64,000 nucleotides of DNA from Planctomycetota bacterium (GTDB lineage: Bacteria > Planctomycetota > UBA8108 > UBA1146 > JAJFFE01). The stretch spans positions 1,078-65,077 of the forward strand of contig JBFWWP010000032.1 in the NCBI GenBank assembly GCA_050246115.1, read 5' to 3'. Shown here piece after piece: positions 12,463-28,757 of the stretch. The notes beneath the pieces were generated by a model. That model was not told where the DNA came from. It worked only from the letters and a program-made list of their open reading frames with translations, and searched no databases. Made by a program: the position numbers and the translations under genes. Within the stretch, counting starts at the first letter, position 1. Every line of letters begins with the position of its first letter.

Positions 12463-15400
12463 CTATGGGCACGGCATGTCGGCCGAGCACCCGAGCGTGT
12501 CCTCCTCGCCTGGGTCTGTGCCGCATCCCTCCACGAAGGGCTCGGGCGGGTTCGAGCCATTGGCGAACAAGTATCCAAGGAGGTAGATCGGGTCGCTGAT
12601 ATCCAAGTTGCCGCTGTCGTTCACGTCGCAGGCATCGTCGCAGGCTGCCGCTCCGCCGCCCGCGAACAGGAGTGAGAGCATCCGCACCGCGTCCGCGATA
12701 TCGACCGCACCGCTGGGGTTGCAGTCGCCGCGTACGAACTGCGGCAATCCAATCGCCGTGACCCCGACCGAGACCACCCAGTCCTGGACCGTAGTGCCAC
12801 CGGGCGCCGTGACGATCACGCGGAACGGGCGGTTGCCTGTCTGTACCCCGGTCGGCGTCCACTGAATCTGGCCAGTGTCGGGATCGATCGCAGCTCCTTG
12901 CGGTGCCAACGGCAACTGATAGTCGAGGCTACCGGCTTCCAAGCCAGGCAGGTAACCGTCTACGTCGTAGAGGTACGCCACGCCGACGGCGGCAGTCAGG
13001 ACCGGGGTGCTCACGACGACCGGGCCTGACAGGATCGGGCACGCGAAATCGACGGTGCAGCAGTGAGTGTTTCCGGGTATGCCCACCGAGTCGATGCAAG
13101 TGATGCAGTAGGTGCCCGCCTTGCAGTTGGGGACTACATACATCCCGTCGCTCGCTGCCACGAAAGCGATCGTCATACCGTTGAGGCTGATCTGCATCTC
13201 TCCGCAGCAGTCGGAGGGGGCCGGCGGTGGGGTCCAAGTCAGCACGAGGTTGCTCCCTTGGAACATACACATGACGCCGTCCACGCAGGGATCGCTGCAG
13301 TCTTCGGGGTCCACGGTGCAGCAGAGTACGGTCGGCGGCGTGCCCTGGTTGCTGCACTGCAGGCAGTACTCGCCGGGCTGGCATACTCCGGGAACCGTGA
13401 AGGTCGTTGTGCCGGGAGGAACCGGGAAGGTCGTGCCGCCGGCGGTGGTGACGCTGAGCGATTGGCAGCAGTCATGGCCCGATAGGGTCCAGGTCAGTAC
13501 CACCTGGCCGTTGACCACGTCGCACACGAAGTTCGACACGCACGGAGTGGGCCCGCAGGGCGGCAACGTGATGCAGCGATCGATCGCGCAGCAGTCCTGA
13601 AGGGTGGCGTCGTGGACCGAGATCTGGAAACAGAGAACCTGGCCCGGAACACCGCCCACGACCTGAGTCGACAAGGTCACGGATCCGCCAGGCGGGACCG
13701 GTGAGAAGCTGAACGCACTCGGCGCGAAGCTCACGCCAGCCGGGAGCGCCCCCAACAGGAAGGCGTTCTCGAGGGTAAAAGGAGAGACGTTCGTGAGCGT
13801 GAACTGATAGGTGTACTGGCCCGGGTTGAGCGGGTCACAGACGACCGACGCGTTCGAGACCTGGACGCAACCACAATCGGGTAGGTCCACACAGAACTCC
13901 GTGCCGCAGCAGTCCTCGAAGTTCGAGTCGAGCAACCCGAGGCGGAAGCACGCCTGGGTTCCACCCGTGCCGTTCGTGATCACGAACGTGACGGTCGCGC
14001 TGGCGCCGTTGGCGAGCGGCGGGCTCTGCGGAAACACGTTGGGCGAAGCCACCACCGGCGCCCCGGGAACGGTGGACGTCGGTGGAATCACGATGTTGGT
14101 GACGGGCACCCCCGAGTCGTTGGTCACCGTCATGTTGACGACGAACGTCGTGCCGGTCGGGTCGGTGAGGTCGCACAGGACTTCTACGTCGGTGATGGCC
14201 GCGCAGTCCGACGATGCAAACACCTCGGGAATCAGCACAAGGGTGCCGAGCGAGGTCTCCATCGAAGGGCCGCCACTCGCGGCGATGAAGGTGCTGTCGT
14301 CCCACTGCCCGCGAAGGTAGAGGTTGGCGTTGGTGTTGTCTTGATTGCGCACCAGCCAATTGAAGTAGCCCTCCCGCGGCGGGCCGGCGACGTTGGGTGC
14401 CAACCCGAATCCGGGTACGACTCCGGGGTTGCCCGTTTCCTCGCCGAACTCCCAGTCGAACGTCACGGCGCCGTTCACCAGCGGCACTTTCGCGATGTTG
14501 AGTGCGTCCGCTGTGATCCGAAGCGTGCGAGCTACGGTCCACATGGTGTAGTAGTTGCCACGGTTCCCTTCGCCGAGTCCGCCGATCGAGTCCTCGTGCC
14601 AGCCGGCCCCGAGCCAATCAATGGCTGCCTGACGTTTGGCTGCGATCGTGTTCAGCGGCGCCGGGGCCGCGGCAATCACGGCGCCCACCGGGACGATCGA
14701 CTCGGTTTCCACGAGTGCCAGCCCCGAGAGACCCGCGGACGTCGTCGATCGTCCTTGGTTGGTCGGCCAGGTAATGAGGGGCGAGTTCGAGTCGTAGCCG
14801 AACCACTGGGGGCCCGCCGCGTTCGGCTGGTGGAAGACCAGGCAGTACTCGGCTTCCTGCTTGATCCAGTCGGGAACAGGAATGTTGTAGTTGGTGGCCT
14901 CGGCACCCTCGAGTGTTACGAACATCCAGCTGTTGATGGACTGGTCGCTGCGCACCGATGGACCGGTGTAGTTCCAACCGCCGCGCGGGCCGCTCGGGGG
15001 AGCGCTGTTCTGTTGGGTGCCGATGAAGTCGATGAGATCCTCGACAACGGTCTTGTAAGAGTCACCGGCAAATGGACCCACCGTAACGAGACGGGCCGGT
15101 GACAGCGCGGCAATGATGGCCGCGGTCGAGATGGCGACCTGGTAGTTGTCCGAGGTGCCCATGCACGGCCGAATGCTACGTCCGTTCCCGTTCAAGTCGG
15201 AAACCCCGTTTGCGACCGCGCCCCGAACGACGTCAGCGTTTGCGGCAACAGTGCCCGCCACCACGAGGTTCGCGAACAGCTGATCGAGGCCACGTTGGAC
15301 GAACTCGGCGTAGATGTCGTCGTCGCTGGCGATTGGAGTGGTGGGCTTGTGTCCCTTGTTGCCGAAGCACCAGAGTGCGAACCCGCCCTCTGCACAGGGG

Positions 15401-15942
15401 TTGAAGCCAGGCCAGGCTCCGCTCGGAAGCTGCTGCAGGTAGAGGCGACGGAGACCGTTCTCGATGGCAATGTTGACGTCGATTTGCAGGCCCGCTGTTT
15501 GCGGGACCGAGGACGGGTCGGTGGGATCGATGATTTGAATGAACACGGAGTCAGAGAAGGTGTTGCTGAACCCATCGACGGCGGTCAAGGTTGCAAGGAT
15601 CGTCTCGTTGGTACTGAAGTTCAGGAGGTTGAAAGTCACCTCTTCGACGATGAACTTGGGGTCGGAGACGATGCCCGACAGGTTGCCGTCATCCACCACC
15701 TGTACGTTTGCGTTGGGGGCGAAAGACCAAGTGTAGCTGGAGCCAAGGGCGCCGGCTCCGCCACCGTTGGCATTGCCCCAGACGAGCGTTCCAACCGCAG
15801 GACGGGCGGGGTGCGGGGCAGTCCGCGGCATGTGCGGCGCGCCGGGCATAACGTTGACCTGGGTCAGCTGCGCATGCGCCGCGGTGGCGACGAGGAGGCA
15901 GAAACCAAGGGAAGTGAGCGACACAGCTCGGCAGCTCGTCAT
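12463..15942 (-). CDS. Very large secreted multidomain protein (1159 aa): signal peptide, possible alpha/alpha-toroid (prenyltransferase/terpene-cyclase-like) region, five DCC/CC Cys-motif repeats, C-terminal dockerin-like module
   Basis: Signal MTSCRAVSLTSLGFCLLVATAAHAQ. Repeated motifs FEDCCGTEFCVDLPDCG, LQDCCAIDRCITLPPCG, HDCCQSLSVT, SDCCGEMQISLNG, HCCTVDFACP. C-terminus GDCNPSGAVDIADAVRMLSLLF ... CDVNDSGNLDISDPIYLLGYLF ... CGTDPGEEDTLGCSADMPCP. Confidence 0.7.
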   Translation of the reverse strand: MTSCRAVSLTSLGFCLLVATAAHAQLTQVNVMPGAPHMPRTAPHPARPAVGTLVWGNANGGGAGALGSSYTWSFAPNANVQVVDDGNLSGIVSDPKFIVEEVTFNLLNFSTNETILATLTAVDGFSNTFSDSVFIQIIDPTDPSSVPQTAGLQIDVNIAIENGLRRLYLQQLPSGAWPGFNPCAEGGFALWCFGNKGHKPTTPIASDDDIYAEFVQRGLDQLFANLVVAGTVAANADVVRGAVANGVSDLNGNGRSIRPCMGTSDNYQVAISTAAIIAALSPARLVTVGPFAGDSYKTVVEDLIDFIGTQQNSAPPSGPRGGWNYTGPSVRSDQSINSWMFVTLEGAEATNYNIPVPDWIKQEAEYCLVFHQPNAAGPQWFGYDSNSPLITWPTNQGRSTTSAGLSGLALVETESIVPVGAVIAAAPAPLNTIAAKRQAAIDWLGAGWHEDSIGGLGEGNRGNYYTMWTVARTLRITADALNIAKVPLVNGAVTFDWEFGEETGNPGVVPGFGLAPNVAGPPREGYFNWLVRNQDNTNANLYLRGQWDDSTFIAASGGPSMETSLGTLVLIPEVFASSDCAAITDVEVLCDLTDPTGTTFVVNMTVTNDSGVPVTNIVIPPTSTVPGAPVVASPNVFPQSPPLANGASATVTFVITNGTGGTQACFRLGLLDSNFEDCCGTEFCVDLPDCGCVQVSNASVVCDPLNPGQYTYQFTLTNVSPFTLENAFLLGALPAGVSFAPSAFSFSPVPPGGSVTLSTQVVGGVPGQVLCFQISVHDATLQDCCAIDRCITLPPCGPTPCVSNFVCDVVNGQVVLTWTLSGHDCCQSLSVTTAGGTTFPVPPGTTTFTVPGVCQPGEYCLQCSNQGTPPTVLCCTVDPEDCSDPCVDGVMCMFQGSNLVLTWTPPPAPSDCCGEMQISLNGMTIAFVAASDGMYVVPNCKAGTYCITCIDSVGIPGNTHCCTVDFACPILSGPVVVSTPVLTAAVGVAYLYDVDGYLPGLEAGSLDYQLPLAPQGAAIDPDTGQIQWTPTGVQTGNRPFRVIVTAPGGTTVQDWVVSVGVTAIGLPQFVRGDCNPSGAVDIADAVRMLSLLFAGGGAAACDDACDVNDSGNLDISDPIYLLGYLFANGSNPPEPFVEGCGTDPGEEDTLGCSADMPCP

Positions 15943-16033
15943 GGGGACACCTTACACTTTCGGCTGAGCCGGGAACCGCGCTCTGCGGTCCTTCGGTTTG
16001 CGGATCGGGGATTCCTCGTCGTTCTTCTGATCA

Positions 16034-16705
16034 CTACGAGCACGGTGGAAAGTCGAGACAGCTGAGTTGGTCGTTGGTCGGATCGGTCCCGCAGCCGGGG
16101 TAGGGCGCCGGCGGAGGCGCGGCGCCACCGAACAGCACGGACAACGTACAAATCGCGTCCGCGATGTTCGCTTGCCCGTCGTCGTTACAGTCGCACGCGT
16201 CGAAACAGACCGGAGTCACGCCCTGTGAGAACAGGTAGCCCAAGAGAGAGATTGGATCTGCAATGTTGAAGTTGCCATCGGCGTTGCAGTCGCCTCGGAT
16301 GAGGGACGGTGTTCCGCAGCCCGGGAAGGTCAGGTCGAGCGCGACCGCGCAGCATTCCCCGAGGTCGGCATCGTGCAGGGACAAGAAGAGGCTTAGTTCC
16401 TGACCAGGGAATGCGCCGAAGACGGTGGCATGGAGGATCAGAGTCTGATCGGCGGCAAGGCCGAGGGATTCTTGCGGAGTGAGGGAGAAACCGATGTTCG
16501 GCGGCAGCGTTGGGTCGCCCAGGATGAATGCGTACTCCAAGGTGAAGCTCGCGAGGCTGTGGACCGACAACTCGAGGTCGTAGGTCGCCGTCGCCACATC
16601 CAGGCATTGGAGCGTCGGCACGACTTCGATGCAGTTCGCCACGAGGGGGGGGCCGCTCGACCCAACGGCGACCAACACCGCCACAGCAAGGAAGTTTCCG
16701 CGCAT
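16034..16705 (-). CDS. Small secreted protein with one CC Cys-motif and C-terminal dockerin-like module
   Basis: Signal MRGNFLAVAVLVAVGSS. LSLHDADLGECCAVALDLTFPGCG parallels the repeats in the 12463..15942 protein. C-terminus IRGDCNADGNFNIADPISLLGYLF ... CDCNDDGQANIADAICTLSVLF ... CGTDPTNDQLSCLDFPPCS. Confidence 0.6.
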   Translation of the reverse strand: MRGNFLAVAVLVAVGSSGPPLVANCIEVVPTLQCLDVATATYDLELSVHSLASFTLEYAFILGDPTLPPNIGFSLTPQESLGLAADQTLILHATVFGAFPGQELSLFLSLHDADLGECCAVALDLTFPGCGTPSLIRGDCNADGNFNIADPISLLGYLFSQGVTPVCFDACDCNDDGQANIADAICTLSVLFGGAAPPPAPYPGCGTDPTNDQLSCLDFPPCS

Positions 16706-17072: not shown

Positions 17073-17450
17073 GTGAAGTCTGATCGAGTCGAACGCCGGC
17101 GAACCGTACGAGTGCCCTTCCGAGAGTCCACGACCGTCACCCTAGGTGGACGGTCGTGGACTGGGTGTACGCTGGACATGAGCCTGGGAGGTATGCGTTT
17201 TCGCGCCGACGAGGACGAGGGCCTGCCGAGTCTCGGCACGACGATCGACGGGTTGTTGCCGATTGCGCCTGGGCAACCGGTCACGGCGCTCTTCGAGGTG
17301 ATTCATCGAGAGCAGCGCGACCTCGGTCTGGCTTTGCGTGCCATCTCCGCGGACGGATTCGCTCACCTGCGCGAAGTGGTTCGCTGGAACTCGCCGACGG
17401 GTCACGATGGCTTCGCGGAGCTCACGGAGCTTCTCCGGGACGGCGACTGA
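17073..17450 (+). CDS. PilZ-domain c-di-GMP-binding protein
   Basis: RRRTVRVPF (RxxxR) and DMSLGGMRF (D/NxSxxG) PilZ signature motifs. GTG start after the AGGCCAAGG SD-like sequence. Confidence 0.7.
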   Translation: MKSDRVERRRTVRVPFRESTTVTLGGRSWTGCTLDMSLGGMRFRADEDEGLPSLGTTIDGLLPIAPGQPVTALFEVIHREQRDLGLALRAISADGFAHLREVVRWNSPTGHDGFAELTELLRDGD

Positions 17451-17524
17451 CCGTGACCCAAGAGGTCCGCCCGATCGATACGCCTGCAAGTGCGGGTTCG
17501 GGCGGTCGTCGATCGACGGGATGA

Positions 17525-18409
17525 TCAGGCCGGTTGGGGGCTTCGCGTCCTTACCGAGACCACGGGGCACTCGCCCAGACGTTGGAGCAGGTTGGCGTCG
17601 GCGCCGGCAACAATGACCGCCCGTGGACTGCTGATTGCCCCCGGCTCCAGCGCTTCCTCACGAACGAACTGGACCTGACCGGAGCGCGCCGCCTGCCGTA
17701 GGAACCGGAGGACCAGACCCGTGTGATCGACGAACATGACCGGGCAGGGTGCCGTGGTCGCCGTCTCCCGAGCCGGGCCGCCGCCGCCACCGGGCGCGGC
17801 CTCGGAGCCCGACGCCGGGGCAGTCCGGCGCACGAACGGCACGTCGGAAGGGATGGTCGCCTGCGTCGCGTGGAGCTCTCGGACAGGGAGGAAGACTGCG
17901 ACGTCGCTAGCCTCGCCGCCGACCCGCATGACGATGCGCAACGACTCCGGATGCACTCCGGCTTCCGGAGGAAGCGCGAGCCCAGCGGGGTAGTGTTCCA
18001 CCGCCCGTTCATCGACCTTCGTGGACATCCGCGCATCCGGGCTCGCGAGTCGATTCCACGACCCGAGAAGGACGTTCCAGATCTCAGTCAGCGCTTCCTC
18101 GACGAAGCCACCGAAGACGAACGGCTCGTCCGCGCGCGGTGGGTCCATGAGCATGGCGGCGTATGCCATGAGTAGCGCGAGCCGCTCACTCACTAGGATT
18201 CCGCCGACTCCGGAGGCATTGCGAATGTAGCAGGCGCGGCAGCACACGTGGCCGGCCTTGCCGGCACCGAGCAGGTCGTGAACCGAGGCGATGCTCAGGT
18301 TCCCGAGATCGAATGTCACCGGCAAGCCCAGGAGATTCGTCAGGTCGGTCGCAACGCCTTCGAAGCTCTTTCGGAGCTCGGCCTCGAAACTACGGCTGAT
18401 TCGCGCCAT
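17525..18409 (-). CDS. CheC/CheX-family chemotaxis phosphatase-like protein
   Basis: FEGVATDLTNLLGLPVTFDLGNLSI and EALTEIWNVLLGSWNRLASP resemble the paired E-x2-N...P repeats of CheC-type CheY-P phosphatases. Sits last in the cheX-cheY operon. Confidence 0.5.
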   Translation of the reverse strand: MARISRSFEAELRKSFEGVATDLTNLLGLPVTFDLGNLSIASVHDLLGAGKAGHVCCRACYIRNASGVGGILVSERLALLMAYAAMLMDPPRADEPFVFGGFVEEALTEIWNVLLGSWNRLASPDARMSTKVDERAVEHYPAGLALPPEAGVHPESLRIVMRVGGEASDVAVFLPVRELHATQATIPSDVPFVRRTAPASGSEAAPGGGGGPARETATTAPCPVMFVDHTGLVLRFLRQAARSGQVQFVREEALEPGAISSPRAVIVAGADANLLQRLGECPVVSVRTRSPQPA

Positions 18410-18491
18410 GAAGTTCCTCCGCGGCTTCGGGTGCCCGGCGATCAGGAAGGCCCGAAGGCCTTCACGACCGGCTCAACGCCCGGACCCGGTC

Positions 18492-18851
18492 TCATGCCGG
18501 TACGACTTCCTTGATCTGGCTGGCCAGTTGGTCGGGGGTGAAAGGCTTCGCAACGAAGCCGTTGGCGCCAGCGTTCTTGGCCTCCGTCTGCTTCGAGAAG
18601 TGGGTCTCTGTCGTCACCATCAACACCGGCGTCGTCGATCCCAGTTTCCGTAGTTCGCGCACGAAAGTCAGCCCGTCCATGTTGGGCATGTTCCAGTCGC
18701 ACAGGATCAAGTCCGGGTCGTTGGGAACTTGCGCGAGCGCAAGCTGTCCATCACCGGCTTCCAGGATCTCGGCTTGAACCCCGCCCGACGCCAACGCGCG
18801 CTTGATCATGTTCCGCATTACCGCCGAGTCGTCTACGATCAAGATCTTCAT
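18492..18851 (-). CDS. cheY: CheY-like single-domain response regulator
   Basis: MKILIVDDSAVMRNMIKRAL, phosphoacceptor region LILCDWNMPNMDG, LMVTTE, AKPF. 119 aa. Start overlaps upstream cheX stop (ATGA). Confidence 0.85.
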   Translation of the reverse strand: MKILIVDDSAVMRNMIKRALASGGVQAEILEAGDGQLALAQVPNDPDLILCDWNMPNMDGLTFVRELRKLGSTTPVLMVTTETHFSKQTEAKNAGANGFVAKPFTPDQLASQIKEVVPA

Positions 18852-19360
18852 TGAGCTCCTCCTGCACGGGCACGTTCATGGTTCGAACTGCACACCTTGT
18901 GTGGCTTCATCTGTAGCACGGTATCGACGACCAACCCACTCGCGAAACGGAAGCGATCGGCCTGAGACGCACAAGTCACGCATCCCGCCAAGCGTAGGCT
19001 GCGGCCCTGGATCACGGAGGGCAACCCAAGGCTCAGGTTGTGGGGCTCGAGTCGGGTCTTGATCCCGCCTGCCGCCAGATTGGCGATCTCTCCGAGTCCG
19101 TCACTCGTCGTCGCGTCATTGGTCGATGGCGCCCCGAGCATGGAGGCGACCAGCTCTTCCGCCGCCGTCGCCGTCACCAGGAGATGGAGCACTGCGTCCA
19201 TGGACTCGCCTTGTAGGGCGATCGTGGCGATGAAGTCGTTGGCTCCGTGGACATCGTCCCGATCGGGACTGACGATACGCTCGACCTCGACGCCAAACAT
19301 GCCGAGTGCCTCGCGCAACGCGGGCTCGACGGCACCGAACAACTCTGGGTCCAAGTGCAT
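18848..19360 (-). CDS. cheX: CheX-type chemotaxis phosphatase
   Basis: DGLGEIANLAAGGIKTRL...LSLGLPSVIQG matches the CheX/CheC GE-x-N-x3-G motif. Start at internal ATG 19360 (MHLDPELF) by frame arithmetic. Confidence 0.65.
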   Translation of the reverse strand: MHLDPELFGAVEPALREALGMFGVEVERIVSPDRDDVHGANDFIATIALQGESMDAVLHLLVTATAAEELVASMLGAPSTNDATTSDGLGEIANLAAGGIKTRLEPHNLSLGLPSVIQGRSLRLAGCVTCASQADRFRFASGLVVDTVLQMKPHKVCSSNHERARAGGAQ

Positions 19361-19595
19361 AGCTCCTTTCCCGACGAACGACCTGGCCTTTCGAGGTATC
19401 GGCGTTCTCCGGGGCGGTACTTTTGGGGAGGTTGAGACACGCTTGTCGTCCACGGCGCTTCGGGGGCCCGCCGGGACGCAGCTTACCGGCTCGTCCTCGA
19501 CCGGCGTCGAGGCGGGACCCCGGTGGACGAATTGGCCGGTTCGGCTGCCTCGGGGTATGTTTCTTAGGGGCTGCTACACCGGAAGAGAGTCCAAA

Positions 19596-19967
19596 ATGCG
19601 CACCATCGTCATCGATGATTCCCGGGCCATCCGCAGCATTCTGCGTCGTATCCTTACCGACCTCGGGTTCGAGGTGCTGGAAGCCGGGAATGGCAAGGAA
19701 GCGCTTTCGACACTCGCAGCCAGCGGTCCCGTGGAACTCGCGCTCGTCGACTGGAACATGCCGGAGATGAATGGTTACGAGTTCCTGAAAGCCTTTCGAG
19801 CGGACCCTAGTTCCGCCAATACGAAGATCATCATGGTGACCACGGAGACGGGCACCGAGGAGATGATCAAAGCGATCGAAGCCGGCGCCAATGAGTACGT
19901 CATGAAGCCCTTCGACAAGGAGATGATCGCCTCCAAGCTCGAGATCCTCGGGATCCCGGCCTGCTGA
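19596..19967 (+). CDS. cheY: CheY-like single-domain response regulator
   Basis: MRTIVIDDSRAIRSILRRIL, LALVDWNMPEMNG, IIMVTTE, MKPF. GGAAGAGAG SD upstream of ATG 19596. The upstream part of the 19038..19967 track ORF was rejected. Confidence 0.85.
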   Translation: MRTIVIDDSRAIRSILRRILTDLGFEVLEAGNGKEALSTLAASGPVELALVDWNMPEMNGYEFLKAFRADPSSANTKIIMVTTETGTEEMIKAIEAGANEYVMKPFDKEMIASKLEILGIPAC

Positions 19968-19980
19968 AAGAGGTGCGCTC

Positions 19981-21060
19981 ATGAAGGCGCGTGTTCTGAT
20001 CGTCGACGACTCCGTGGTGATTCGCCGGGTGCTGAGCCAAGCGCTCGGGAGCCATCCCGACATCGAAGTGGTCGGCACTGCTGCCAATGGCCAGATTGGG
20101 CTGGCGAAGATCGCTCAGCTCGAGCCAGACGTGGTCACCATGGACATCGAGATGCCAGTCCTGGACGGCCTCGAGACTTTGGCTGAGCTGCGGAAGACCC
20201 ACCCCCGGCTACCCGTGATCATGTTCAGCACACTGACGGAACGCGGTGGACAGGCAACTCTCAAGGCACTGTCGCTCGGGGCCTCCGACTATCTGACCAA
20301 GCCGAGCCAGACCGAGAGTCCGGGTGAAGCCATCGAGCAAGTGAAAGACGACTTGATCGCGCGGATCCTTGCCCTTACCGGCCGTGGTGAAGCGCCGGTG
20401 CGCACGCCGAGCCCCGCTCCTGCGCGCCCGCGGGATCCCCAGCCCGGCCGCGTGGACATCGTTGCGATCGGGGTCTCGACCGGCGGCCCCAATGCGCTCG
20501 CTGAGATCTTCCCGCGCTTGCCCGCCGACCTGCCGGTGCCGATCGTGCTGGTGCAGCACATGCCGCCGCTGTTTACGCGCTTGCTCGCCGAGCGGCTGGA
20601 CAGCGTCTCGCCGCTCAAGGTATCCGAGGCCAGCGACGGACAGGTGATCGCGCCGGGCACAGCGTGGATCGCCCCCGGGAACTTCCACATGACGGTCGAG
20701 CGGAGCGGCACTGACGTCGTTCTTCGGACCCATCAGGGTGCACCCGAGAACTCGTGCCGGCCGGCGGTCGATCCACTGTTTCGCTCAGTGGCCAGCGTGT
20801 ACGGCCGGCATACGCTGGCGGTGATCCTGACCGGGATGGGACAGGACGGTAAGAAGGGCTGCGAAGTGCTGCACGAACTCGGTGCTCAGATCATCGTGCA
20901 GGATCGCGCCAGCTCGGTCGTGTGGGGCATGCCTTCCGCGGTGGCCCTGAATGGCTTGGCACAAGCCGAGCTGCCGTTGAATGCGATTGCGGACGAAATT
21001 GGTCTGCGGACGCGCGCTCACCGAACCTCTCGGACGCGACGGTCCTTGGCCTCTTCCTGA
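19981..21060 (+). CDS. cheB: Chemotaxis response regulator protein-glutamate methylesterase CheB
   Basis: N-terminal REC domain (VLIVDDSVVIRRVL...VVTMDIEMPVLDG). C-terminal methylesterase DIVAIGVSTGGPNAL, VLVQHMPPLFT, GMGQDG. Confidence 0.9.
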   Translation: MKARVLIVDDSVVIRRVLSQALGSHPDIEVVGTAANGQIGLAKIAQLEPDVVTMDIEMPVLDGLETLAELRKTHPRLPVIMFSTLTERGGQATLKALSLGASDYLTKPSQTESPGEAIEQVKDDLIARILALTGRGEAPVRTPSPAPARPRDPQPGRVDIVAIGVSTGGPNALAEIFPRLPADLPVPIVLVQHMPPLFTRLLAERLDSVSPLKVSEASDGQVIAPGTAWIAPGNFHMTVERSGTDVVLRTHQGAPENSCRPAVDPLFRSVASVYGRHTLAVILTGMGQDGKKGCEVLHELGAQIIVQDRASSVVWGMPSAVALNGLAQAELPLNAIADEIGLRTRAHRTSRTRRSLASS

Positions 21061-21071
21061 ACGAGAGCTTA

Positions 21072-21905
21072 ATGCCGCCGAAGACTTCTGGTTTGGAGTT
21101 CGTCCGTACCCTGGTCCGAGACCGAGCGGGTATCGTCCTGGAGAGCAACAAGGACTACCTGATCGAGTCCCGCCTCAGTGCGGTCGCCCGTAAGTGCGGT
21201 CATAGTTCGCTCGACGACTTCTTGGACGCCATTCAAGGCAAGCGTGACCCCGAGGTCCTCGCGACCGTCGTCGATGCAATGACTACGAACGAAACCTCGT
21301 TCTTTCGTGAGATGCACGTCTTCGAAGGACTGAGGAAGACCGTGTTGCCGGAGTGCATCGAGTTCAACAAGTCTCGGAGGCAGCTGAACTTTTGGTGCGG
21401 GGCCGCCTCTAGCGGACAGGAACCGTACACGATCGCCATGGCGCTTCAGGACTGGTTCCCGGAACTTGCCACCTGGAAGATCCAGTTCACGGCCACGGAC
21501 ATCTCGCAGGAGATGCTCGCACGGTGCCAGGAGGGGGTTTACTCCCAGCTCGAGGTCAATCGTGGGCTGCCCGTACCCATGCTCCTGAAGCACTTTCAGA
21601 AGCAGGGTGCGGACTGGCGTGTCAAGGACCACCTGCGTCGGTACGTCACCTTCCGTGAGCTCAACCTGATCGGCAAGTGGCCGCCGTTCCCAACGCTCGA
21701 CGTGGTGTTCCTCCGCAACGTGCTGATCTACTTCGACGTCGATACCAAGAAGAAGATCCTCGCCAACATCCGCACCTTTCTTCGCCCGCAAGGATTCTTG
21801 TTCCTCGGCTCGGCCGAGACGACTTTGAACCTCGACAACGACTTCGAGCGCGTCAAGTTCGATCGCGGTTGCTGTTACCGTCACGTCCCCAGGAAGGCAA
21901 CCTGA
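21072..21905 (+). CDS. cheR: Chemotaxis protein methyltransferase CheR
   Basis: TNETSFFRE, SAdoMet-binding NFWCGAASSGQEPYTIAM, FLRNVLIYFD. Start at ATG 21072 (MPPKTSG) inside the 20922 ORF, just after the cheB stop. Confidence 0.85.
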   Translation: MPPKTSGLEFVRTLVRDRAGIVLESNKDYLIESRLSAVARKCGHSSLDDFLDAIQGKRDPEVLATVVDAMTTNETSFFREMHVFEGLRKTVLPECIEFNKSRRQLNFWCGAASSGQEPYTIAMALQDWFPELATWKIQFTATDISQEMLARCQEGVYSQLEVNRGLPVPMLLKHFQKQGADWRVKDHLRRYVTFRELNLIGKWPPFPTLDVVFLRNVLIYFDVDTKKKILANIRTFLRPQGFLFLGSAETTLNLDNDFERVKFDRGCCYRHVPRKAT

Positions 21906-21906
21906 C

Positions 21907-22368
21907 ATGCAGGCTCATATGCAGGAGATCACCCGCTTCACCGAGAGCATCTGGAGCACGATGCTCGGATTCATGGTGCAAGCCCAAGTGGGGTCGAGCG
22001 AGCGGGAACTCAGCGAGGTCTCGGACCACGAAGTCGTCGCTTCCGTGGCCATTGCGGGCGCCTGGAACGGTTCGGTCGCGGTCGTCTGTAGCGAGAATCT
22101 GGCGCGCCGTGCCGCTGGCGCCCTCTTCGAGAAGCCCTTCGGGGAGGTCACTCTCGAGGAACTCTCGGACGCCATGGGCGAACTCGCGAACATGATTGGT
22201 GGCAACCTGAAGTCGTTGCTGCCCGCTCCCTCGCATCTCGAAACGCCGTGGATGGCGTGTACTCGTCGCGGGGCCCGGTTCTTGCCCGAGCAGGCCATCA
22301 TCACCCAGGCTGCGTTCGAGTGCGATGGGGCCGGGTTCCGGGTCTACCTTCTCAAGCCGTCTTCCTGA
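21907..22368 (+). CDS. cheX: CheX-type chemotaxis phosphatase
   Basis: LSDAMGELANMIGGNLKSLLP is the CheX/CheC signature. 153 aa. Immediately follows cheR. Confidence 0.6.
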   Translation: MQAHMQEITRFTESIWSTMLGFMVQAQVGSSERELSEVSDHEVVASVAIAGAWNGSVAVVCSENLARRAAGALFEKPFGEVTLEELSDAMGELANMIGGNLKSLLPAPSHLETPWMACTRRGARFLPEQAIITQAAFECDGAGFRVYLLKPSS

Positions 22369-22512
22369 GTCCGGAGCCCAAGAGAGTCCTGCGGCAGTAC
22401 CGGGCAGACGTCACTTCTCCCCGCCACAGACCCCTTCGAACCAACCGGAGACCGGAGACGGCTAGCCGATCCCGACCACGGTGACAGGAACCGGCAACCA
22501 CCCAACGACGCG

Positions 22513-22543
22513 CCGGGGACGCCCCGTGGAGGGACGTCCCCAG
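22513..22543. terminator. GC-rich hairpin between convergent cheX and chemoreceptor genes; candidate bidirectional terminator
   Basis: GGGGACG-N13-CGTCCCC inverted repeat in the 185-bp gap between convergent gene ends (22368 and 22554). No U-tract, as expected in a high-GC genome. Confidence 0.3.
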
Positions 22544-22553
22544 CAGCCGGGCC

Positions 22554-24734
22554 TTACTCGAACTTGAACCGACCGACCAGCTTCTGGAGCCCCGCGGCCA
22601 TCTCCGAGAGTTCTTGGGCCGCCTTCTGGGTATCGCTTGCCCCGGAAGACGTGCTCTCCGCCGCTTGGGCGACTCCCGTGATGTTCTCGGCGATCTCGGT
22701 AGTGCCGCGGGCCGCCTCGGCCACGTTGCGTCCGATTTCGTTGGTGGCAGCGGTCTGCTCCTCGACCGCACTGGCGATGGTGTTCGAGATGTCGTTGATC
22801 TGCTTGATCACGCCCGAGATCTGGGCGATCGCGTTGACCGCGCTCTTCGTGTCCTCTTGGTTGGCCTCGATCTTCTGACTGATCTCCTCGGTTGCCTTGG
22901 CGGTCTCCTTGGCGAGCTCCTTGACCTCGTTCGCAACGACCGCGAAGCCCTTGCCGGCCTCTCCGGCGCGCGCCGCTTCGATGGTGGCGTTCAAGGCGAG
23001 CAGGTTCGTCTGTTGAGCGATCGAGGTGATCACTTTGATCACTTGTCCGATCTCCGCGCTGCTGTTCCCGAGCTTGGCGACGATCGCGTTGGTCTCGTCG
23101 GCCACGCGAACTGCTTGCGTCGCGACGCGCGCCGCTTCGTTCGCGTTGGTGGCGATCTCCGAGATGCTCGCGGTCATCTCCTCGGCGCCGGTTGCCACGG
23201 TTTGCACACTCTTGCTGACCTCGCCGGCCGCGTTCGACACCACACTGGCTTGGGCCGAGGTCTCCTCGGCGTTGGCGCTCATCTGCTCGCTGACGGCCGT
23301 GATCTCGTCCGCGGACGCCGCCAGGCCCTGGGCGCTGTGGGCGATCGTCGAGATGCTCCCGCGCAGGTTCGAGAGGAACTTGGACAGTCCGACCGCGAGC
23401 TGACCAATGGCATCGCTGCCATCGAGGTCGATGCCGCGGGTCAGATCGCCGTCCTGGGCCGACTGCACCACGTCCAGGATCAGGCTCACCTTCTCGCGCA
23501 GCTCGGCTGCTTGAGCGCGCTCGCGCTGCTGCGCCGCCTCGATCTCCTGCTCCTGCTTGAGCTGATCGGTGATTACCGCCCATGACACCATGGGCCCGAT
23601 GTAGGTGCCCTTGGCGTCGTTGATGGCCGACACCTGGAGGTCCAGCGTTTCCGGACCGAGCTGGATCTGTGCGCGGTGTGGCAGGTTGCGCGGGTCGCTG
23701 AGCATCTTGCGCTGATGCTCCGGTCGTTTGTGGAAGATGTCGATGCTCGCGCCGACGACCTTGTCGGCGGGAATCGGCAGGTACTGTTCGACTTTGCGCA
23801 GCGTGGCGAGCGATGCAGGGTTCATGTAGGTGATACGGAAGTCGAGGTCAGTCATCATGATGTTGATCGGCGCGTTCTCGACGAGGGCGAGGATCCGCGC
23901 CTGATCGTTGGCCATGCGGAGTTTGTCGGTGATCACCTCCCAGGTGACCATCGGACCGACGTAGTTGCCGTTGGCGTCGTAGATTGGGCTGACGAGCAGG
24001 TCCGCGGTCTCCGGGCCGATCTGAATCGACGTCCGGTGCGGCAGGTTCGCCGGGTTCTTCAGCAAGCGTCGCTGGTGCGAAGGGTTCTTGTGGAACACGT
24101 CGATGCTGGCGCCCACCATCTGATCCACCGGAATCGGCAGGTACTGCTCGAGCTTCTCGAGCGTGGTCCGTGAGGCCGGGTTGACGTACGTCAGGACGAG
24201 GTCTTCGTCCGCGAGCAGTACGTTGACTGGTGCGTTCTCGAGCATGGCCAGGAGGGTCTCCTGGGTCATTTCCTTTTGCCGCGTCTGCGTCTTCGTCATT
24301 GCCAAAGCCTCTTTTCCACCGACCGATTCGTCCGGGGTATTGATGATTTGTGCTGCCAGGGGACCGATCCGCTGCATGACCTCTCGAACTAGGTCGTCTT
24401 GGACACCGGCAGACGTGAGCGTTGCCGTGAGATGCTGGGCGATCCGCGAGAAGTGACGTCCTTGGATCGAGAGGTGAGAGTGGGCGGATTCCATGTCGCG
24501 CCCCTTGTAGCTGCGCGGCCCGTCCAAGGCCTGGGAGAAGAATGCAACTTGCTGCTTCTTCAGCCACTGCATGTCCGTACGTTCAAAGAACGTCGACACC
24601 AAGGGGTCATCCAGAACCAATTCATAGAAAGCATCCACGACGCTCTTGAGCGCTGCCTTGCCCCCGAGGCGGTCGTAGAGCGACTGCGTCGCGGGAGTTC
24701 CGGGTACTGAGGGCGTCTCGTTGCGCACGGTCAT
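22554..24734 (-). CDS. Methyl-accepting chemotaxis protein with N-terminal truncated haemoglobin (group I trHb), two PAS domains and C-terminal MCP signalling domain
   Basis: trHbN signature [32 protein letters not shown]...[15 protein letters not shown] (B10 Tyr, GG motif, proximal His). Two PAS-like segments follow. Highly conserved MCP core [33 protein letters not shown]. No transmembrane segment seen. Start at ATG 24734 (MTVRNET). Confidence 0.8.
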
Positions 24735-24762
24735 TGGAGTTCCGTTCACGCTGGGCAAAGAG

Positions 24763-25221
24763 TCAGAGCGACGGGGAAGACGCCACCGCAGTGTCGAGCG
24801 CCCTGCGGGTGTCGAGCACGAGGAGGAGTCGACCGGGGTGTTTGTAGACGCCCTTGATGAGCTCGCGCACCGACGCAGCGACCGTCTCGGGTGGAGATTC
24901 GTAGCTCTCCGGGTGGACTTCGAGAACGTCGCCGATGTCATCGACGAGGAGGCTCACCGCGCCTTCCGACTCGCGAACCACGACATTCATCGGCAGCTGC
25001 CCGGGCTCGCGATCGGGTAGGCCGAGGCGCCGTCGCAGGTCGATCGCGGTGACGATCTCCCCCCGCAAGTTGATCAGGCCGCTGACCTCGGGGGGGGCCA
25101 ACGGCACCATGGTCATGCGCTGGTAGCGGATGACCTCTTGAACGTCGAGTACGGGAATCCCGAGGAACAACTCACCCAGGTAGAAGGTGCAGAGCTGTCG
25201 GGTCTGGCTTTCGCTATGCAT
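24763..25221 (-). CDS. cheW: Chemotaxis coupling protein CheW
   Basis: [22 protein letters not shown]...[18 protein letters not shown]...LVLDTRRAL is a typical CheW fold. Start at ATG 25221 (MHSESQT), overlapping the cheA 3' end. Confidence 0.85.
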
Positions 25222-27448
25222 GAGCGACCTCCTGGAGCAAGCTGGGATCGAAGGCGGAAACGATCGAGTCGAGGTCGACGAACTGCGTGACGCGGTCATG
25301 GACGACGGCGGTTTGAGTGACGCCCTTGCGCGGGATCTTGCGTTGAACCTCGATCGTCTCATCGACGATGTCGAGGATGCGCCCGACGACCAGGCCAACG
25401 CTGGACGAGCCACGCGAATGAACGATGACCTGATAGACCTGCCGTTCGCTCTCCTCCGTGGTTACATTGAAGAGCCGTGGCAGGTTGAGGAGTGGCATGA
25501 TCTCGCCGCGGTACTGAACGACTTCTTGACCGCCGACGAGTTCGACGCGGTCGAACGGGATCTCTTCGAGCCGGGCAACCGCAGCCAAAGGCATGGCCAT
25601 CTGTTCTTTGCCGCCGAGGCTGAACAGGAGCAGGGCTTGGCGGCGCCCGACGCTCTTGCTGTCGGCATGCTCGAAGCGGCCGACCTGGCGCTCCGCGTGT
25701 TCGGTGACCACCTGGGCGCGCTGAGCCAAGCCCATGACGTCCAGGATCAGCGCTACCTTGCCGTCGCCACGGACGGTGGCTCCGGCGAAAGCACTGGCAC
25801 CCTTGAGTTGCCGACCGAGCGGTTTGACGACGATCTCCTCAGTGTCGTTGATCCCTTCGACGACGAGGCCGAACTGACGGTCGTCGGCCTGGAGGACGAC
25901 GATGTTGACGATCGAGTCGGTGCGCGGCGTGTCGGCAGCCTTGGCGATTCGCAGTTCCTCGTCCAGGAAGACGAGTGGGAGGATGTTCCCGCGGAGTCGG
26001 TAGACCGGGGCGCGGTGGACATACTCGATGCCGTCGCGGGCTTGGTCCCCCTCCAGGCGGACCAGTTCGAGGAGGTTGACCTGGGGGATCGCGTACTGCT
26101 CGCCGCCGGTCGAAACCACCAGCGCGGGGATGATGGCCAGGGTCAGCGGGATCTTCACCCGCAGCGTCATACCTTGGCCGAACACGCTTTGCACGTCGAC
26201 CGTGCCGCCGATCTTCTCGATGTTGGTGCGGACCACGTCCATGCCGACGCCGCGGCCGGAGACGTTGGTCACCTTTTCTGCGGTCGAGAAACCTGGACGG
26301 AAGATGAGGTTCACCGCCTCACGATCGCTCATGCGTGCGTGCTGCTCGGCGGTGATGACGCTACGCTGCAGGGCCTTCTCCTTGACCCTTTCGATGTTGA
26401 TGCCAGCGCCGTCGTCGATGATCTCGATATTGACCTGGCCGCCCTCGTGGAACGCTCGTAGGAGGAGGCAGCCTTCTTCGGGCTTTCCTTTCTGACGGCG
26501 GACTTCGGGGGGTTCGATACCATGGTCGACCGAGTTGCGAATGACGTGTGTGAGCGGGTCCTTGATGGCCTCGATGATGGTCTTGTCGAGCTCGGTGCCC
26601 TCACCCTCCATCTCCACACGGACCTTCTTGCCACAGGCGCGCGACAGATCGCGGACCACGCGTGGGAACCGACTCCACACGGTGTGGATGGGCTGCATGC
26701 GGGTTTTCATGACACCGCCTTGCAGTTCTGTCGTCACGAGGTTGAGTCGCTGAGTGGTCGCGAGGAAGGTGTTGTCGTTGAGGTTGGCGGAGAACTGGAG
26801 AATCTGGTTCCTGGCCAGCACGAGTTCGCCAACCAGGTTCATGAGCTTGTCGAGTTGGGCGACGTCGACCCGGACGGCGGTGTCGGCCAACGAGGCGGCC
26901 TTGGACTCGTTGGGACGGCTCGGCTCGGGCGCCGGTTCGCCGGGCGGCGACGAAGCAGGCGCTGCCCCCGCTTCGGCCGGACGAACTCGTTCGGCCTTCT
27001 CGACCATGGGCGGAACGGGCTCAGGTGGAGCCGCGGGGACCGCTTCGGCCACGGCCGGATCGGCTTGGCGGCTTGGGTCCTGCAGGCGCGTGAGCAGTGC
27101 GATCAGTCCGGAGTCGTCGCGAACCCCCTCGTTCCCGGAGTTCTCGATGGAGGAGAGCATTTGGCGCACCGCGTCGACCATGGCGAGCAACGCGGTGGTG
27201 ATCTCCTGGTTCAGTTGCAGCTTGCCGTCGCGCAGCATGCTGAGGAGGTTCTCCCCGTTGTGCGTGACGGACTCGAGCTTGTGGAAGGCGAGGAACCCGC
27301 AGGTACCCTTGATCGTGTGGATACAGCGGAAGATCGCCGCCAGGAGATTGCGGTCGGTTGGGTCCTTCTCGAGCGCGATCAGGTCACGGTCCAACTGGTC
27401 GAGGCCCTCGTAGCTCTCCACCAGAAACTCTCGGATTAGGTCGTCCAT
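25214..27448 (-). CDS. cheA: Chemotaxis histidine kinase CheA
   Basis: HPt site FRCIHTIKGTCGFLAF. Dimerisation and HATPase_c regions (HLIRNSVDHGIE, GRGVGMDVV). Two C-terminal CheW-like domains. Start at ATG 27448 (MDDLIREFLV). Confidence 0.9.
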   Translation of the reverse strand: MDDLIREFLVESYEGLDQLDRDLIALEKDPTDRNLLAAIFRCIHTIKGTCGFLAFHKLESVTHNGENLLSMLRDGKLQLNQEITTALLAMVDAVRQMLSSIENSGNEGVRDDSGLIALLTRLQDPSRQADPAVAEAVPAAPPEPVPPMVEKAERVRPAEAGAAPASSPPGEPAPEPSRPNESKAASLADTAVRVDVAQLDKLMNLVGELVLARNQILQFSANLNDNTFLATTQRLNLVTTELQGGVMKTRMQPIHTVWSRFPRVVRDLSRACGKKVRVEMEGEGTELDKTIIEAIKDPLTHVIRNSVDHGIEPPEVRRQKGKPEEGCLLLRAFHEGGQVNIEIIDDGAGINIERVKEKALQRSVITAEQHARMSDREAVNLIFRPGFSTAEKVTNVSGRGVGMDVVRTNIEKIGGTVDVQSVFGQGMTLRVKIPLTLAIIPALVVSTGGEQYAIPQVNLLELVRLEGDQARDGIEYVHRAPVYRLRGNILPLVFLDEELRIAKAADTPRTDSIVNIVVLQADDRQFGLVVEGINDTEEIVVKPLGRQLKGASAFAGATVRGDGKVALILDVMGLAQRAQVVTEHAERQVGRFEHADSKSVGRRQALLLFSLGGKEQMAMPLAAVARLEEIPFDRVELVGGQEVVQYRGEIMPLLNLPRLFNVTTEESERQVYQVIVHSRGSSSVGLVVGRILDIVDETIEVQRKIPRKGVTQTAVVHDRVTQFVDLDSIVSAFDPSLLQEVAHA

Positions 27449-27782
27449 GCACTTCCCTTGGAGTTGTTCGACGTGGCGATGGGGTACGCTAGGTCTCGGC
27501 CTGACAGCTTTATCGACAGAACTGCGCGGTTCCCTTAGCGACCGAGGCGTGGGTCCCGGAAGCGTGGCGAGGCCGGCCGTCGGGAGGGAGGAGCCCGGGG
27601 GCGCGCGACCGCAGCGCACCGGCGGGTTCGCCGCGCACGATGCAGGCTTGCCAGGGGGCTAGCGAGGAGCACCGTTGGCCAGTATCCTCGGAAGCCTTGC
27701 GAGCCGCTGGCGGGGAGGGCGGCGCGGCGACCCCGGTCTCGGGTCACTGTTTCGACGCCAACTCCCTTTCAGAAAACAGCTT

Positions 27783-28757
27783 ATGGACCAGGGACGGGCA
27801 CTCCAGAGGGAGCTTCCGCCGCCCTCTGGGCAAGAGCAGATGGACGATCAGCGTAGACACAACGAAACCTCCTTCCTCGCCGGGGCGCCGTTTCATCGCC
27901 TCACGCCAGCCCAAGAGTTGCGCCCATCCCTGGTCGTGATGCAGGGCGCCAACGTAGGGCTGCGGTATCTGTTGAACGAAGCCCGACTGGTCATGGGCCG
28001 TGGGCTCGACCAGGCCCAACTGGTACTTCCCGACCGTTCCGTCTCGGGTGTTCATGCGGTCGTTACGCGCACCGGCGAAGGCGTGACGGCGACTTACTCG
28101 GTACAGGATCTCGGAAGTCGGAACGGGACCTTCGTGAACGGAACCCGACTCGAGGGCTCGGAGACCCGGGTGTTGGTGTCCGAGGATCGTATCGCCCTGG
28201 GGGAGACGGTCCTCAAGTTCACGCTGATGGATGACGCCGAGGGCGACTTCTACGGCAAGATCAGCTCGCTCATGTATCAGGATGATCTGACGGGCCTGGT
28301 CAACAAGCGGCGCTTCGACACGGACTATCACGTCAGTTTCGAGTCCGCGGTCCTTCGCCGCCGCCCGATCGCCGTGGTCATGATGGACATGGACCGCGTC
28401 AAGCAGATCAACGACACCCACGGTCACCACTACGGGGCCTACACGATCGCCGCTACCGGGAAGTTGATCGGCGCGGCTTTTCGGCCGCCGGCCTTGGCCA
28501 CGCGATTCGGGGGGGACGAGTTCATCGCGTACATCCCGGGACTCCGGGCCGACGCCGCCGTGGAGGTCGCGCAGTCGGTCGTGCAAGCGGTGCGGGACTT
28601 CGTCTACGAACTCGATGGCGTCCGCGTCTATCCGACCCTCAGCGTTGGGGTCGCGGCCTACCCCGACGCCGGTCCGACCCCGGAGGAACTCGTTCGAGCT
28701 GCCGACGCGGCGCTCTATCGGGCCAAACAGAACGGACGCAACCAAGCGTCCGTGTAG
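27783..28757 (+). CDS. FHA-domain diguanylate cyclase (FHA-GGDEF)
   Basis: FHA core LVMGRGLDQAQLVLPDRSVSGVHAVV...GSRNGTFVNG. GGDEF domain with LTGLVNKRRF, RFGGDEF active site, and LYRAKQNGRNQ. Start ATG 27783 or 27840 (uncertain). Confidence 0.8.
   Translation: MDQGRALQRELPPPSGQEQMDDQRRHNETSFLAGAPFHRLTPAQELRPSLVVMQGANVGLRYLLNEARLVMGRGLDQAQLVLPDRSVSGVHAVVTRTGEGVTATYSVQDLGSRNGTFVNGTRLEGSETRVLVSEDRIALGETVLKFTLMDDAEGDFYGKISSLMYQDDLTGLVNKRRFDTDYHVSFESAVLRRRPIAVVMMDMDRVKQINDTHGHHYGAYTIAATGKLIGAAFRPPALATRFGGDEFIAYIPGLRADAAVEVAQSVVQAVRDFVYELDGVRVYPTLSVGVAAYPDAGPTPEELVRAADAALYRAKQNGRNQASV

Follow-up and report, generated by a model that had tools for sequence, protein, structure and literature searches.

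Crosstalk between cyclic di-GMP (c-di-GMP) and chemotaxis is understood in few proteobacteria, through YcgR, MapZ, the Cle proteins and, most recently, PlzC-CheX. To our knowledge, chemotaxis in the Planctomycetota is essentially unstudied. Here we describe a chemosensory (che) locus at positions 17073-28757 of a 64,000-nucleotide stretch of DNA from a Planctomycetota bacterium (GenBank assembly GCA_050246115.1, contig JBFWWP010000032.1), the whole of which we call the window. Berry, Andrianova and Zhulin report that CheAs carrying a pair of CheW domains belong almost entirely to chemosensory class F5, the duplication occurring in 99% of F5 CheAs (PMC10782961). As features of F5, a second paper gives an AW...BR gene order, a CheA with an additional CheW domain and cognate receptors of 38 heptads, or 38H (PMC10746217). 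In Vibrio cholerae, PlzC modulates CheX, a phosphatase of phosphorylated CheY-3, and this effect did not require c-di-GMP binding (PMC12799141). The combination of Bac_globin, PAS and receptor signalling domains, together with its cluster, was earlier proposed in silico to be an aerotaxis system, with a planctomycete among the examples (PMC6194562). The che cluster described here belongs, as a whole, to known kinds, as does its globin-bearing receptor. The novelty lies in a module of two adjacent genes, one for a PilZ protein and one for a member of a previously undescribed family that we designate U294. We hold, with moderate confidence, that the locus as a whole is best explained as an F5 flagellum-type system in which PilZ would tune the turnover of phosphorylated CheY (CheY-P), while an FHA-GGDEF cyclase at the far end of the locus stands apart.

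The gene order is PilZ, CheC-like (U294)-cheY-cheX, cheY-cheB-cheR-cheX, mcp-cheW-cheA and FHA-GGDEF (Table 1), where mcp encodes a methyl-accepting chemotaxis protein (MCP) with truncated haemoglobin (trHb) and two PAS domains. As judged by gene orientation, these form five transcription units. The three che operons are tightly packed, with overlaps of 4-8 nt and most gaps of 1-28 nt, the sole larger gap being the 82 nt between cheY1 and U294. PilZ is a single-gene unit convergent with U294 across a 74-bp gap, FHA-GGDEF is a single-gene unit divergent from cheA with about 390 bp between them, and cheX1 and cheY2 diverge from an intergenic region of 235 bp. An earlier note on this DNA, made by a model from the letters alone, had listed this gene inventory, which Pfam and NCBIfam scans bear out. 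That note had also treated transcriptional separation of PilZ and FHA-GGDEF as telling against its c-di-GMP reading, and each does form a unit of its own, unlinked to the che operons. On the predicted orientations, co-transcription of either with the che genes is impossible.

U294 is identical to an NCBI entry named 'hypothetical protein AB7O52_16935 [Planctomycetota bacterium]'. With U294 alone as query, no significant match emerged from Pfam, NCBIfam or the PDB, neither CheX protein was matched by BLASTP, and a word-indexed homology search returned only U294 itself. An exhaustive HMMER search of 1.84 billion representative proteins recovered 22 relatives, mostly full length and of 280-307 amino acids (aa); those that are named are all 'hypothetical protein' from Planctomycetota metagenome-assembled genomes (MAGs). 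An AlphaFold2 model built on an alignment of 17 homologues reached a mean predicted local distance difference test (pLDDT) score of 82.9, exceeding 90 over residues 1-180. A model from the single sequence was unusable (pLDDT 37.6), and the fold was resolved only with the family alignment. When the model was searched against the PDB with Foldseek, matches 1 to 32 were all CheC, FliY, CheX or the middle domain of FliM, the next match having an E-value of 0.6. The best was T. maritima FliY (4HYN; E=1.5e-7, target TM 0.67).

Profile comparisons point the same way. An hhalign comparison of the U294 profile with a CheX alignment gave E=1.7e-4 and brought the ExxN motifs of the two into register, and Pfam CheX is matched by three of the 17 family members; the top PDB profile match of the family is a CheC, at a score that is not significant. 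The U294 motif E104-x3-E108-x2-N111 aligns with the CheX motif and provides a single candidate ExxN site (E108-N111). Beyond the fold, about 70 C-terminal residues form an additional alpha/beta domain. The modelled structure confirms a CheC-type alpha/beta fold for the N-terminal ~180 residues, and U294 is a rare, distinct and previously undescribed CheC-fold family without a Pfam or NCBIfam match. The count of three CheC/CheX copies in the earlier note is thereby upheld, two being identified by Pfam CheX and U294 by AlphaFold2 and Foldseek together with the profile comparison to CheX. In a Pirellulales MAG (L048:13622-14759, +; L-numbers such as L002 or L173 are labels of related loci and contigs), the module after cheR reads cheX-cheY-cheX, with a CheX-like gene at the position of U294, an arrangement that hints that U294 was derived from a CheX or took the place of one.

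The neighbouring PilZ protein has intact RxxxR (RRTVR) and DxSxxG (DMSLGG) motifs, from which c-di-GMP binding is predicted, and its best PDB sequence matches, PA4608/MapZ, are weak (E~0.07). Since a PilZ homologue search returned only two proteins, PilZ contexts were read via the U294 homologues, of which nine further lineages were inspected besides the window. A convergent PilZ gene lies downstream of U294 in the window and in L173, in both of which cheX-cheY lies upstream. Convergent PilZ genes also lie downstream in L166, where only cheY is visible before the contig start, in L174/175, where a fusion of CheX to a receiver (REC) domain lies upstream, and in L176, where REC-HDOD, PAS and REC genes do. 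In L167, the U294 homologue follows cheX-cheY and is met by a convergent cheY-cheW-cheA without PilZ. L168/169 and L171/172 have neither che nor REC genes upstream nor PilZ downstream. In L170, with cheX-cheY upstream, and L177, with no che or REC genes upstream, the contig ends on the downstream side. A convergent single-domain PilZ thus follows the U294 homologue in five of the eight lineages whose downstream side is visible, and a position after cheX-cheY or a REC gene is found in the window, L166, L167, L170, L173, L174/175 and L176.

The PilZ proteins beside U294 are 117-138 aa long and their genes lie 13-95 bp past the U294 stop. RxxxR and (D/N)xSLGG, as well as further positions, are kept in the PilZ proteins of L166, L173, L174 and L176, and in that of L162, a contig discussed below. 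The U294 proteins of the PilZ-bearing lineages are 34-40% identical to the window copy, and the genes beyond PilZ differ in all five. Because the adjacency recurs across such divergent U294 proteins with differing flanks, functional coupling of PilZ to the cheX-cheY-U294 node is a credible reading of the conserved synteny, and a c-di-GMP link is credible for PilZ only. When HMMs of the U294 and PilZ families were run on 160 related che loci from other phyla, no stand-alone homologue was found; the sole match was a PilZ domain within a large acidobacterial multidomain protein (HD-GYP, GAF, GGDEF, PilZ). What is new, then, is a rare CheC-fold family that keeps its PilZ partner through repeated rearrangement, and, for a step of CheY-P turnover that c-di-GMP may control, the U294-PilZ pair is a concrete candidate open to test.

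Two other features were seen around U294 homologues. The CheX-receiver fusion (419 aa; L174:8748-10007, +; L175:2210-3469, +) lies directly upstream of the U294 homologue and PilZ, with no cheA within 10 kb. A gene for a stand-alone single-domain Hpt protein (107-119 aa) lies 2-9 kb upstream of the U294 homologue in L168, L170, L171 and L176; each of these loci also has DUF2270, and all but L171 have DUF420. The recurrence may reflect residual synteny or a phosphorelay link.

Relatives of the cluster were collected by a CheA scan of one genome per species and of JGI metagenomes, yielding 160 loci with identities of up to 62%, drawn from Acidobacteriota, Binatia, Planctomycetota and others. In tblastn maps, the core cheA-cheW-mcp-(cheY)-cheB-cheR-cheX is kept, often with a cheY/cheX pair nearby, and the two-CheW CheA architecture is common to the 160 relatives, the matches reaching the C-terminus. 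The position of cheX2 after cheR is kept in Binatia and Planctomycetota. Nearest in arrangement are L009, L010, L021 and L048, in which A-W-(mcp)-Y-B-R-X all run in one direction, whereas in the window A-W-mcp and Y-B-R-X lie on different strands. All 11 genes from cheA-cheW-mcp through PilZ recur in L173 in the layout of the window, with a CheA of 68% identity. The CheA of the window has neither a P2 nor a receiver domain. Three F5 hallmarks are present, namely the two-CheW CheA, the AW...BR order in relatives and a 38H receptor, and on account of these we place the system in F5, a flagellar class, the assignment being made from domains, gene order and receptor length rather than from class HMMs or a tree. 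The system is not Wsp-like.

Other c-di-GMP proteins occur beside clusters of this che type. To illustrate, L044 (16273-19365, -) and also L051, L072 and L077, all from Acidobacteriota, encode a membrane protein of about 1000 aa with HD-GYP, GAF, GGDEF and PilZ domains, convergent with and directly past cheB of a related cheA-cheW-mcp-cheB cluster. In a few Acidobacteriaceae loci (L032:7748-9805, -; also L127 and L157), a PAS-GGDEF-EAL membrane protein is divergent from cheA, in the same position as the FHA-GGDEF of the window and of unrelated architecture.

In the receptor, a group-1 truncated haemoglobin precedes two PAS domains, which are followed by HAMP and a signalling domain of 38 heptads. 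Its globin aligns with M. tuberculosis HbN gap-free over 115 aa (E=1.2e-24), with Phe-Tyr at B9-B10 (Tyr-B10) and the proximal His-F8 in register; by sequence the domain classifies as a group 1 truncated haemoglobin (trHbN), and haem binding is predicted. No hydrophobic or membrane segment was seen on reading the sequence by eye, and the receptor is predicted to be cytoplasmic and soluble. The heptad class comes from a hand count on alignments to Tsr (36H) and TM1143 (44H), not from class HMMs: the N-arm, from HAMP to the hairpin tip, is 7 residues, or one heptad, longer than that of Tsr, and the C-arm, with 134 residues, is intermediate between those of Tsr (126) and TM1143 (153), so that arms of 133 and 134 residues from the tip make 19 heptads each. 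Full-length receptor homologues follow cheA-cheW in other phyla (L002, L013, L117). The closest receptor relative (L173:2911-3320, +) is 66% identical over PAS-PAS-HAMP-MCP; no globin domain is detectable in it, and no Pfam family matches its first ~136 residues. A swap of sensor modules has thus taken place between close relatives. A second soluble chemoreceptor is encoded about 19 kb from the cluster. It has about 133 residues from the hairpin tip to a C-terminal CZB zinc-binding domain and may also be 38H, feeding the same array.

At the other end of the locus, the FHA-GGDEF protein is a widespread DgcB-type cyclase by sequence. Its best PDB match is full length, to Bdellovibrio DgcB (6HBZ; E=9.5e-30), and its family yields more than 3000 matches of about 300 aa, from Planctomycetota and Myxococcota among other groups. 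The FHA domain has the canonical residues, and the RFGGDEF motif, which the earlier note had described as intact, is so; it is intact in 119 of 120 family members as well. The RxxD I-site is absent in 120 of 120, reading RPPA here against RSND in DgcB. DgcB is activated when a Thr in its tail, once phosphorylated, is bound by the FHA domain of the same protein (PMC6733907). The window protein has the N-terminal tail N-E-T10-S-F-L13 (counted from ATG 27840), and Thr with an aliphatic or aromatic residue at +3 is kept in 13 aligned homologues. By analogy, the FHA domain most likely binds its own phosphorylated tail. The phospho-Thr partner sought by the earlier note would thus most likely be the tail of the cyclase itself. 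Two kinases of the window, one with a WD40 propeller and one fused to TPR repeats, are candidates that might phosphorylate the tail. The former overlaps by 4 nt the gene of a sigma factor of extracytoplasmic function (ECF) type (together 34173-38146, -), and the latter abuts a sigma-70 region-4 protein (together 7791-11418).

Conservation separates the cyclase from the che genes. None of the 160 related loci has an FHA-GGDEF beside it, and only unrelated GGDEF proteins occur there, in eight of the 160. No GGDEF lies near the U294-PilZ modules of L166, L173 (PilZ side), L174 and L176. The closest FHA-GGDEF homologue (80% identity) lies on contig L162, which is colinear with window positions 12469-16546 and continues with PilZ and then FHA-GGDEF, 306 bp apart on the same strand, the ~10-kb che cluster being missing. 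At that locus, cyclase and PilZ persist without the che cluster. Since the more distant L173 and L166 have U294 beside PilZ, the sequences point to loss, with the L162 lineage most likely having lost the che genes. Insertion of the cluster between PilZ and FHA-GGDEF was considered and dropped: no direct or inverted repeats of at least 11 nt were found at the cluster borders, and U294 is beside PilZ in L173 and L166 also. The intergenic DNA is too diverged to place breakpoints. Two proteins encoded on the far side of PilZ, one dockerin-like and one with a He_PIG domain, are kept in L162 as well (~64% amino-acid and ~75% nucleotide identity). As a part of the chemosensory system, FHA-GGDEF is not conserved.

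These results bear on the alternative output suggested in the earlier note, spelled out here as a pathway that would act outside motility by setting c-di-GMP through FHA-GGDEF, with PilZ as effector, Ser/Thr-kinase input and a Wsp-like logic in which FHA replaces REC. The cyclase does stand directly upstream of cheA, divergent from it, where a regulatory region could be shared; its GGDEF and FHA residues are sound; the window holds no flagellar genes; and c-di-GMP proteins of other kinds adjoin related che clusters in some Acidobacteria. Set against this are the F5 hallmarks and a cyclase with no Pfam match to Response_reg, which leaves CheA without a known route to it. The FHA domain moreover has a self-tail ligand motif as in DgcB, the gene lies outside the che operons, and the counts among the 160 loci, the U294-PilZ modules and L162 all dissociate it from che. 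We regard such an output as very improbable, and neither an alternative c-di-GMP output through FHA-GGDEF nor a Wsp-like logic is supported; the c-di-GMP link of the earlier note is credible for PilZ, through the adjacency in five of eight lineages, and not for FHA-GGDEF. A cyclase beside cheA is, by itself, no evidence for a Wsp-like output.

Several observations weigh against an F5 system with PilZ-tuned CheY-P turnover. Domain scans detected no flagellar or pilus domain in any plausible open reading frame (ORF) of the 64-kb window, as the earlier note had said of flagellar genes, and the flagellar output is taken from class alone, a class that was itself read from three hallmarks. PilZ is convergent with U294 and hence not co-transcribed with it; U294 occurs without PilZ in three of the eight lineages (L167, L168/169, L171/172); and in the nearest relative, L162, the locus retains PilZ and has neither U294 nor che genes. 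In U294 itself, ExxN is kept in only about 11 of the 17 family members, N111 being replaced in several, and the prolines fall at +12 and +29, compared with about +22 in the (D/S)xxxExxN phosphatase motif. U294 may bind CheY-P without hydrolysing it.

This last point can be carried further, making U294 a FliM-like CheY-P acceptor rather than a phosphatase, part of a REC-U294-PilZ switch acting on a non-flagellar target, with the che cluster as one of several inputs. FliM middle domains and FliY are among the best structural matches, the first pseudo-repeat of U294 lacks a conserved ExxN and the second retains it only in part, and the additional C-terminal domain would fit as well. In L174/175 and L176, the U294 module is far from any cheA and adjoins the CheX-REC fusion or the REC-HDOD, PAS and REC genes. 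We nevertheless think this unlikely, as U294 follows cheX-cheY in or beside full che clusters in four lineages, a CheX-like gene holds the equivalent position in L048 and ExxN is present in most of the family. Somewhat more unlikely still is that PilZ and FHA-GGDEF are both bystanders, their bracketing of the cluster being an accident of gene order in one lineage without meaning for chemotaxis. Their separate transcription units, the lack of conservation of FHA-GGDEF with che clusters and the persistence of PilZ in L162 would all agree with this, as would the density of signalling genes, with two Ser/Thr kinases, several ECF sigma factors and a second MCP in 64 kb. An adjacency that recurs in five lineages, with U294 proteins 34-40% identical and different far flanks, is hard to obtain by chance or residual synteny.

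The explanation that we favour, an F5 system with PilZ acting on CheY-P turnover, can be set out as follows; domain content, fold and synteny were computed here, and the activities and contacts are deductions from the families and motifs of the proteins. The soluble trHb-PAS-PAS-HAMP-38H receptor would sense O2, nitric oxide (NO) or redox state and, with CheW, control the two-CheW CheA, which would phosphorylate CheB and both CheY proteins, CheR and CheB providing adaptation. The system probably serves aerotaxis or NO taxis. CheY-P would be removed by the two CheX proteins and probably also by the divergent CheC/FliY-fold U294. Each of the two cheY genes is in one operon with a cheX of its own, and this suggests that the CheY and CheX proteins form dedicated pairs; the phosphate-sink arrangement raised in the earlier note is not needed to explain the gene set. 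PilZ, as judged from conserved synteny only, may act on the cheX-cheY-U294 node, so that c-di-GMP tunes the lifetime or routing of CheY-P. In that case, c-di-GMP would be an input to the pathway and not its output, a situation like that in Vibrio cholerae, where PlzC acts on CheX, or in Pseudomonas, where MapZ acts on CheR1. FHA-GGDEF would probably be switched on by a Ser/Thr kinase that phosphorylates its N-terminal tail, and may, in this narrow lineage, be a local source of c-di-GMP for PilZ. More tentatively, and at odds we would call rather low, the node may be one, confined so far to the Planctomycetota, at which U294, together with a dedicated single-domain PilZ and a receiver of the CheY type, would integrate c-di-GMP and CheY phosphorylation. 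The form taken could be that of a c-di-GMP-gated CheY-P phosphatase or of a soluble FliM-like adaptor, used also away from che clusters (L174, L176).

Genes were identified from an ORF listing, third-position G+C and Pfam and NCBIfam scans, in a window of 62-69% G+C. As the longest ORF overstated gene length in some cases, start codons were refined by ribosome-binding sites, independent gene calls (NCBI, Logan) and the onset of homologue alignments (Table 1). Promoter and terminator scans of the locus gave scores no better than shuffles, and a hairpin between PilZ and U294 was not significant (z=-1.1). The surroundings of the cluster encode ECF-sigma/kinase pairs, dockerin-like repeats and FG-GAP proteins, a content that in our judgement suits a planctomycete. 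Two ECF-like sigma factors in the window have very long C-terminal extensions, and a protein with a HipA-like kinase domain, which may be a kinase of toxin-antitoxin type, is apparently unrelated to the cluster.

Table 1. Genes of the che locus, followed by other genes of the window referred to in the text
Feature	Position	Strand	Evidence and remarks
PilZ, 125 aa, predicted c-di-GMP receptor	17073..17450	+	Pfam PilZ E=8e-13
U294 (CheC-like), 294 aa	17525..18409	-	no Pfam/NCBIfam match; last gene of cheX-cheY-U294 operon
CheY1, 119 aa, single-domain receiver	18492..18851	-	Pfam Response_reg E=6e-29; DWNMP motif; top NCBIfam match CheY; identical protein called on an independent Logan contig
CheX1, 170 aa, CheY-P phosphatase family	18848..19360	-	Pfam CheX E=3.6e-11, 43.4 bits (cut-off 27); ExxN is EIAN, in conserved helix; start ATG 19360 with GGAG ahead, agreeing with Logan call; stop overlaps cheY1 start by 4 nt
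CheY2, 123 aa, first gene of cheY-cheB-cheR-cheX operon	19596..19967	+	Pfam Response_reg E=6e-27; start ATG 19596; 123-aa call on Logan contig concurs; homologues of 50-65% identity at same position in relatives
CheB methylesterase with N-terminal receiver, 359 aa	19981..21060	+	Pfam CheB_methylest E=3e-64, Response_reg; NCBIfam CheB 406 bits, above cut-off
CheR methyltransferase, 277 aa	21072..21905	+	Pfam CheR E=9e-55, CheR_N; start ATG 21072
CheX2, 153 aa, CheY-P phosphatase family	21907..22368	+	Pfam CheX E=9e-15, 55 bits (cut-off 27); ExxN is ELAN, in conserved helix
MCP receptor, 726 aa	22554..24734	-	Pfam Bac_globin E=2e-23, PAS, PAS, HAMP, MCPsignal; start ATG 24734
CheW, 152 aa	24763..25221	-	Pfam CheW E=2e-31; AGGAGG ahead of start ATG 25221; start overlaps cheA stop by 8 nt
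CheA, 744 aa	25214..27448	-	Pfam Hpt, dimerisation, HATPase, CheW, CheW; start ATG 27448, homologues aligning from residue ~58 of 801-aa ORF
FHA-GGDEF diguanylate cyclase, 305 aa	27840..28757	+	Pfam FHA E=1e-16, GGDEF E=2e-34; start ATG 27840, longest ORF from 27675
Sigma-70 region-4 protein	7791-8651	-	
Kinase-TPR protein	8623-11418	+	
He_PIG-domain protein, 1159 aa	12463-15942	-	
Dockerin-like protein, 223 aa	16034-16705	-	two dockerin/EF-hand-like Asp-rich repeats
Ser/Thr kinase with WD40 propeller	34173-37520	-	
ECF-type sigma factor	37517-38146	-	
ECF-like sigma factor, long extension	39374-42106	-	910 aa, with CarboxypepD_reg repeats
Second soluble chemoreceptor	43863-45494	-	MCPsignal, C-terminal CZB; no membrane segment
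ECF-like sigma factor, long extension	50214-52166	+	650 aa
HipA-like kinase-domain protein, 601 aa	61380-63185	+	kinase domain C-terminal

Compared with the F5 systems of Caulobacter crescentus (CheAI cluster), Azospirillum brasilense (Che1) and Rhodospirillum centenum (Che1), the window shares the duplicated CheW-like domain and absence of P2 in CheA, the cheA-cheW ... cheB-cheR order (in its relatives), a 38H receptor and adaptation by CheB and CheR. It differs in a CheA without a C-terminal receiver, the division of the cluster among three units, the inversion of its Y-B-R-X block, the presence of two CheX proteins and a CheC-fold protein, and a planctomycete host. The 'aerotaxis' cluster Cc-5 of Corallococcus coralloides, described in silico by Sharma, Parales and Singer (2018), likewise has a cytoplasmic Bac_globin, PAS, MCP receptor after cheA-cheW, an architecture also listed for the planctomycete Rubinisphaera brasiliensis. 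In the window, the receptor has two PAS domains and HAMP, ABC1 and ABM genes are lacking, and CheX, CheY, CheC-like and PilZ genes are added; both systems are known from sequence alone. The cyclase resembles DgcB of Bdellovibrio bacteriovorus (Bd0742, 6HBZ) in its tail-FHA-GGDEF layout, phosphothreonine-binding residues, N-terminal Thr with a hydrophobic residue at +3 and intact GGDEF, but lacks, along with all 120 family members, the RxxD that DgcB has, and its host is not predatory.

With the CheC, FliY and CheX phosphatases and the FliM middle domain, U294 shares the fold of its N-terminal ~180 residues and an ExxN that aligns with the active-site helix of CheX. It is set apart by the absence of a Pfam or NCBIfam sequence match, by having one candidate active site that is not invariant, by a C-terminal alpha/beta domain that is not FliN/SpoA and by the lack of an evident N-terminal CheY-binding peptide. 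The closest parallels for the U294-PilZ module are PlzC-CheX of Vibrio cholerae (Park et al. 2026) and MapZ-CheR1 of Pseudomonas aeruginosa, in each of which a PilZ-domain protein acts on a chemotaxis enzyme. MapZ is, like the PilZ of the window, a single-domain protein, the similarity between them being weak (E~0.07). The target of PlzC is a CheY-P phosphatase of the CheC/CheX family, and the pair ties c-di-GMP signalling to flagellar switching. For the window, the link comes from the gene neighbourhood alone, and the likely partner of PilZ is a member of a new CheC-fold family.

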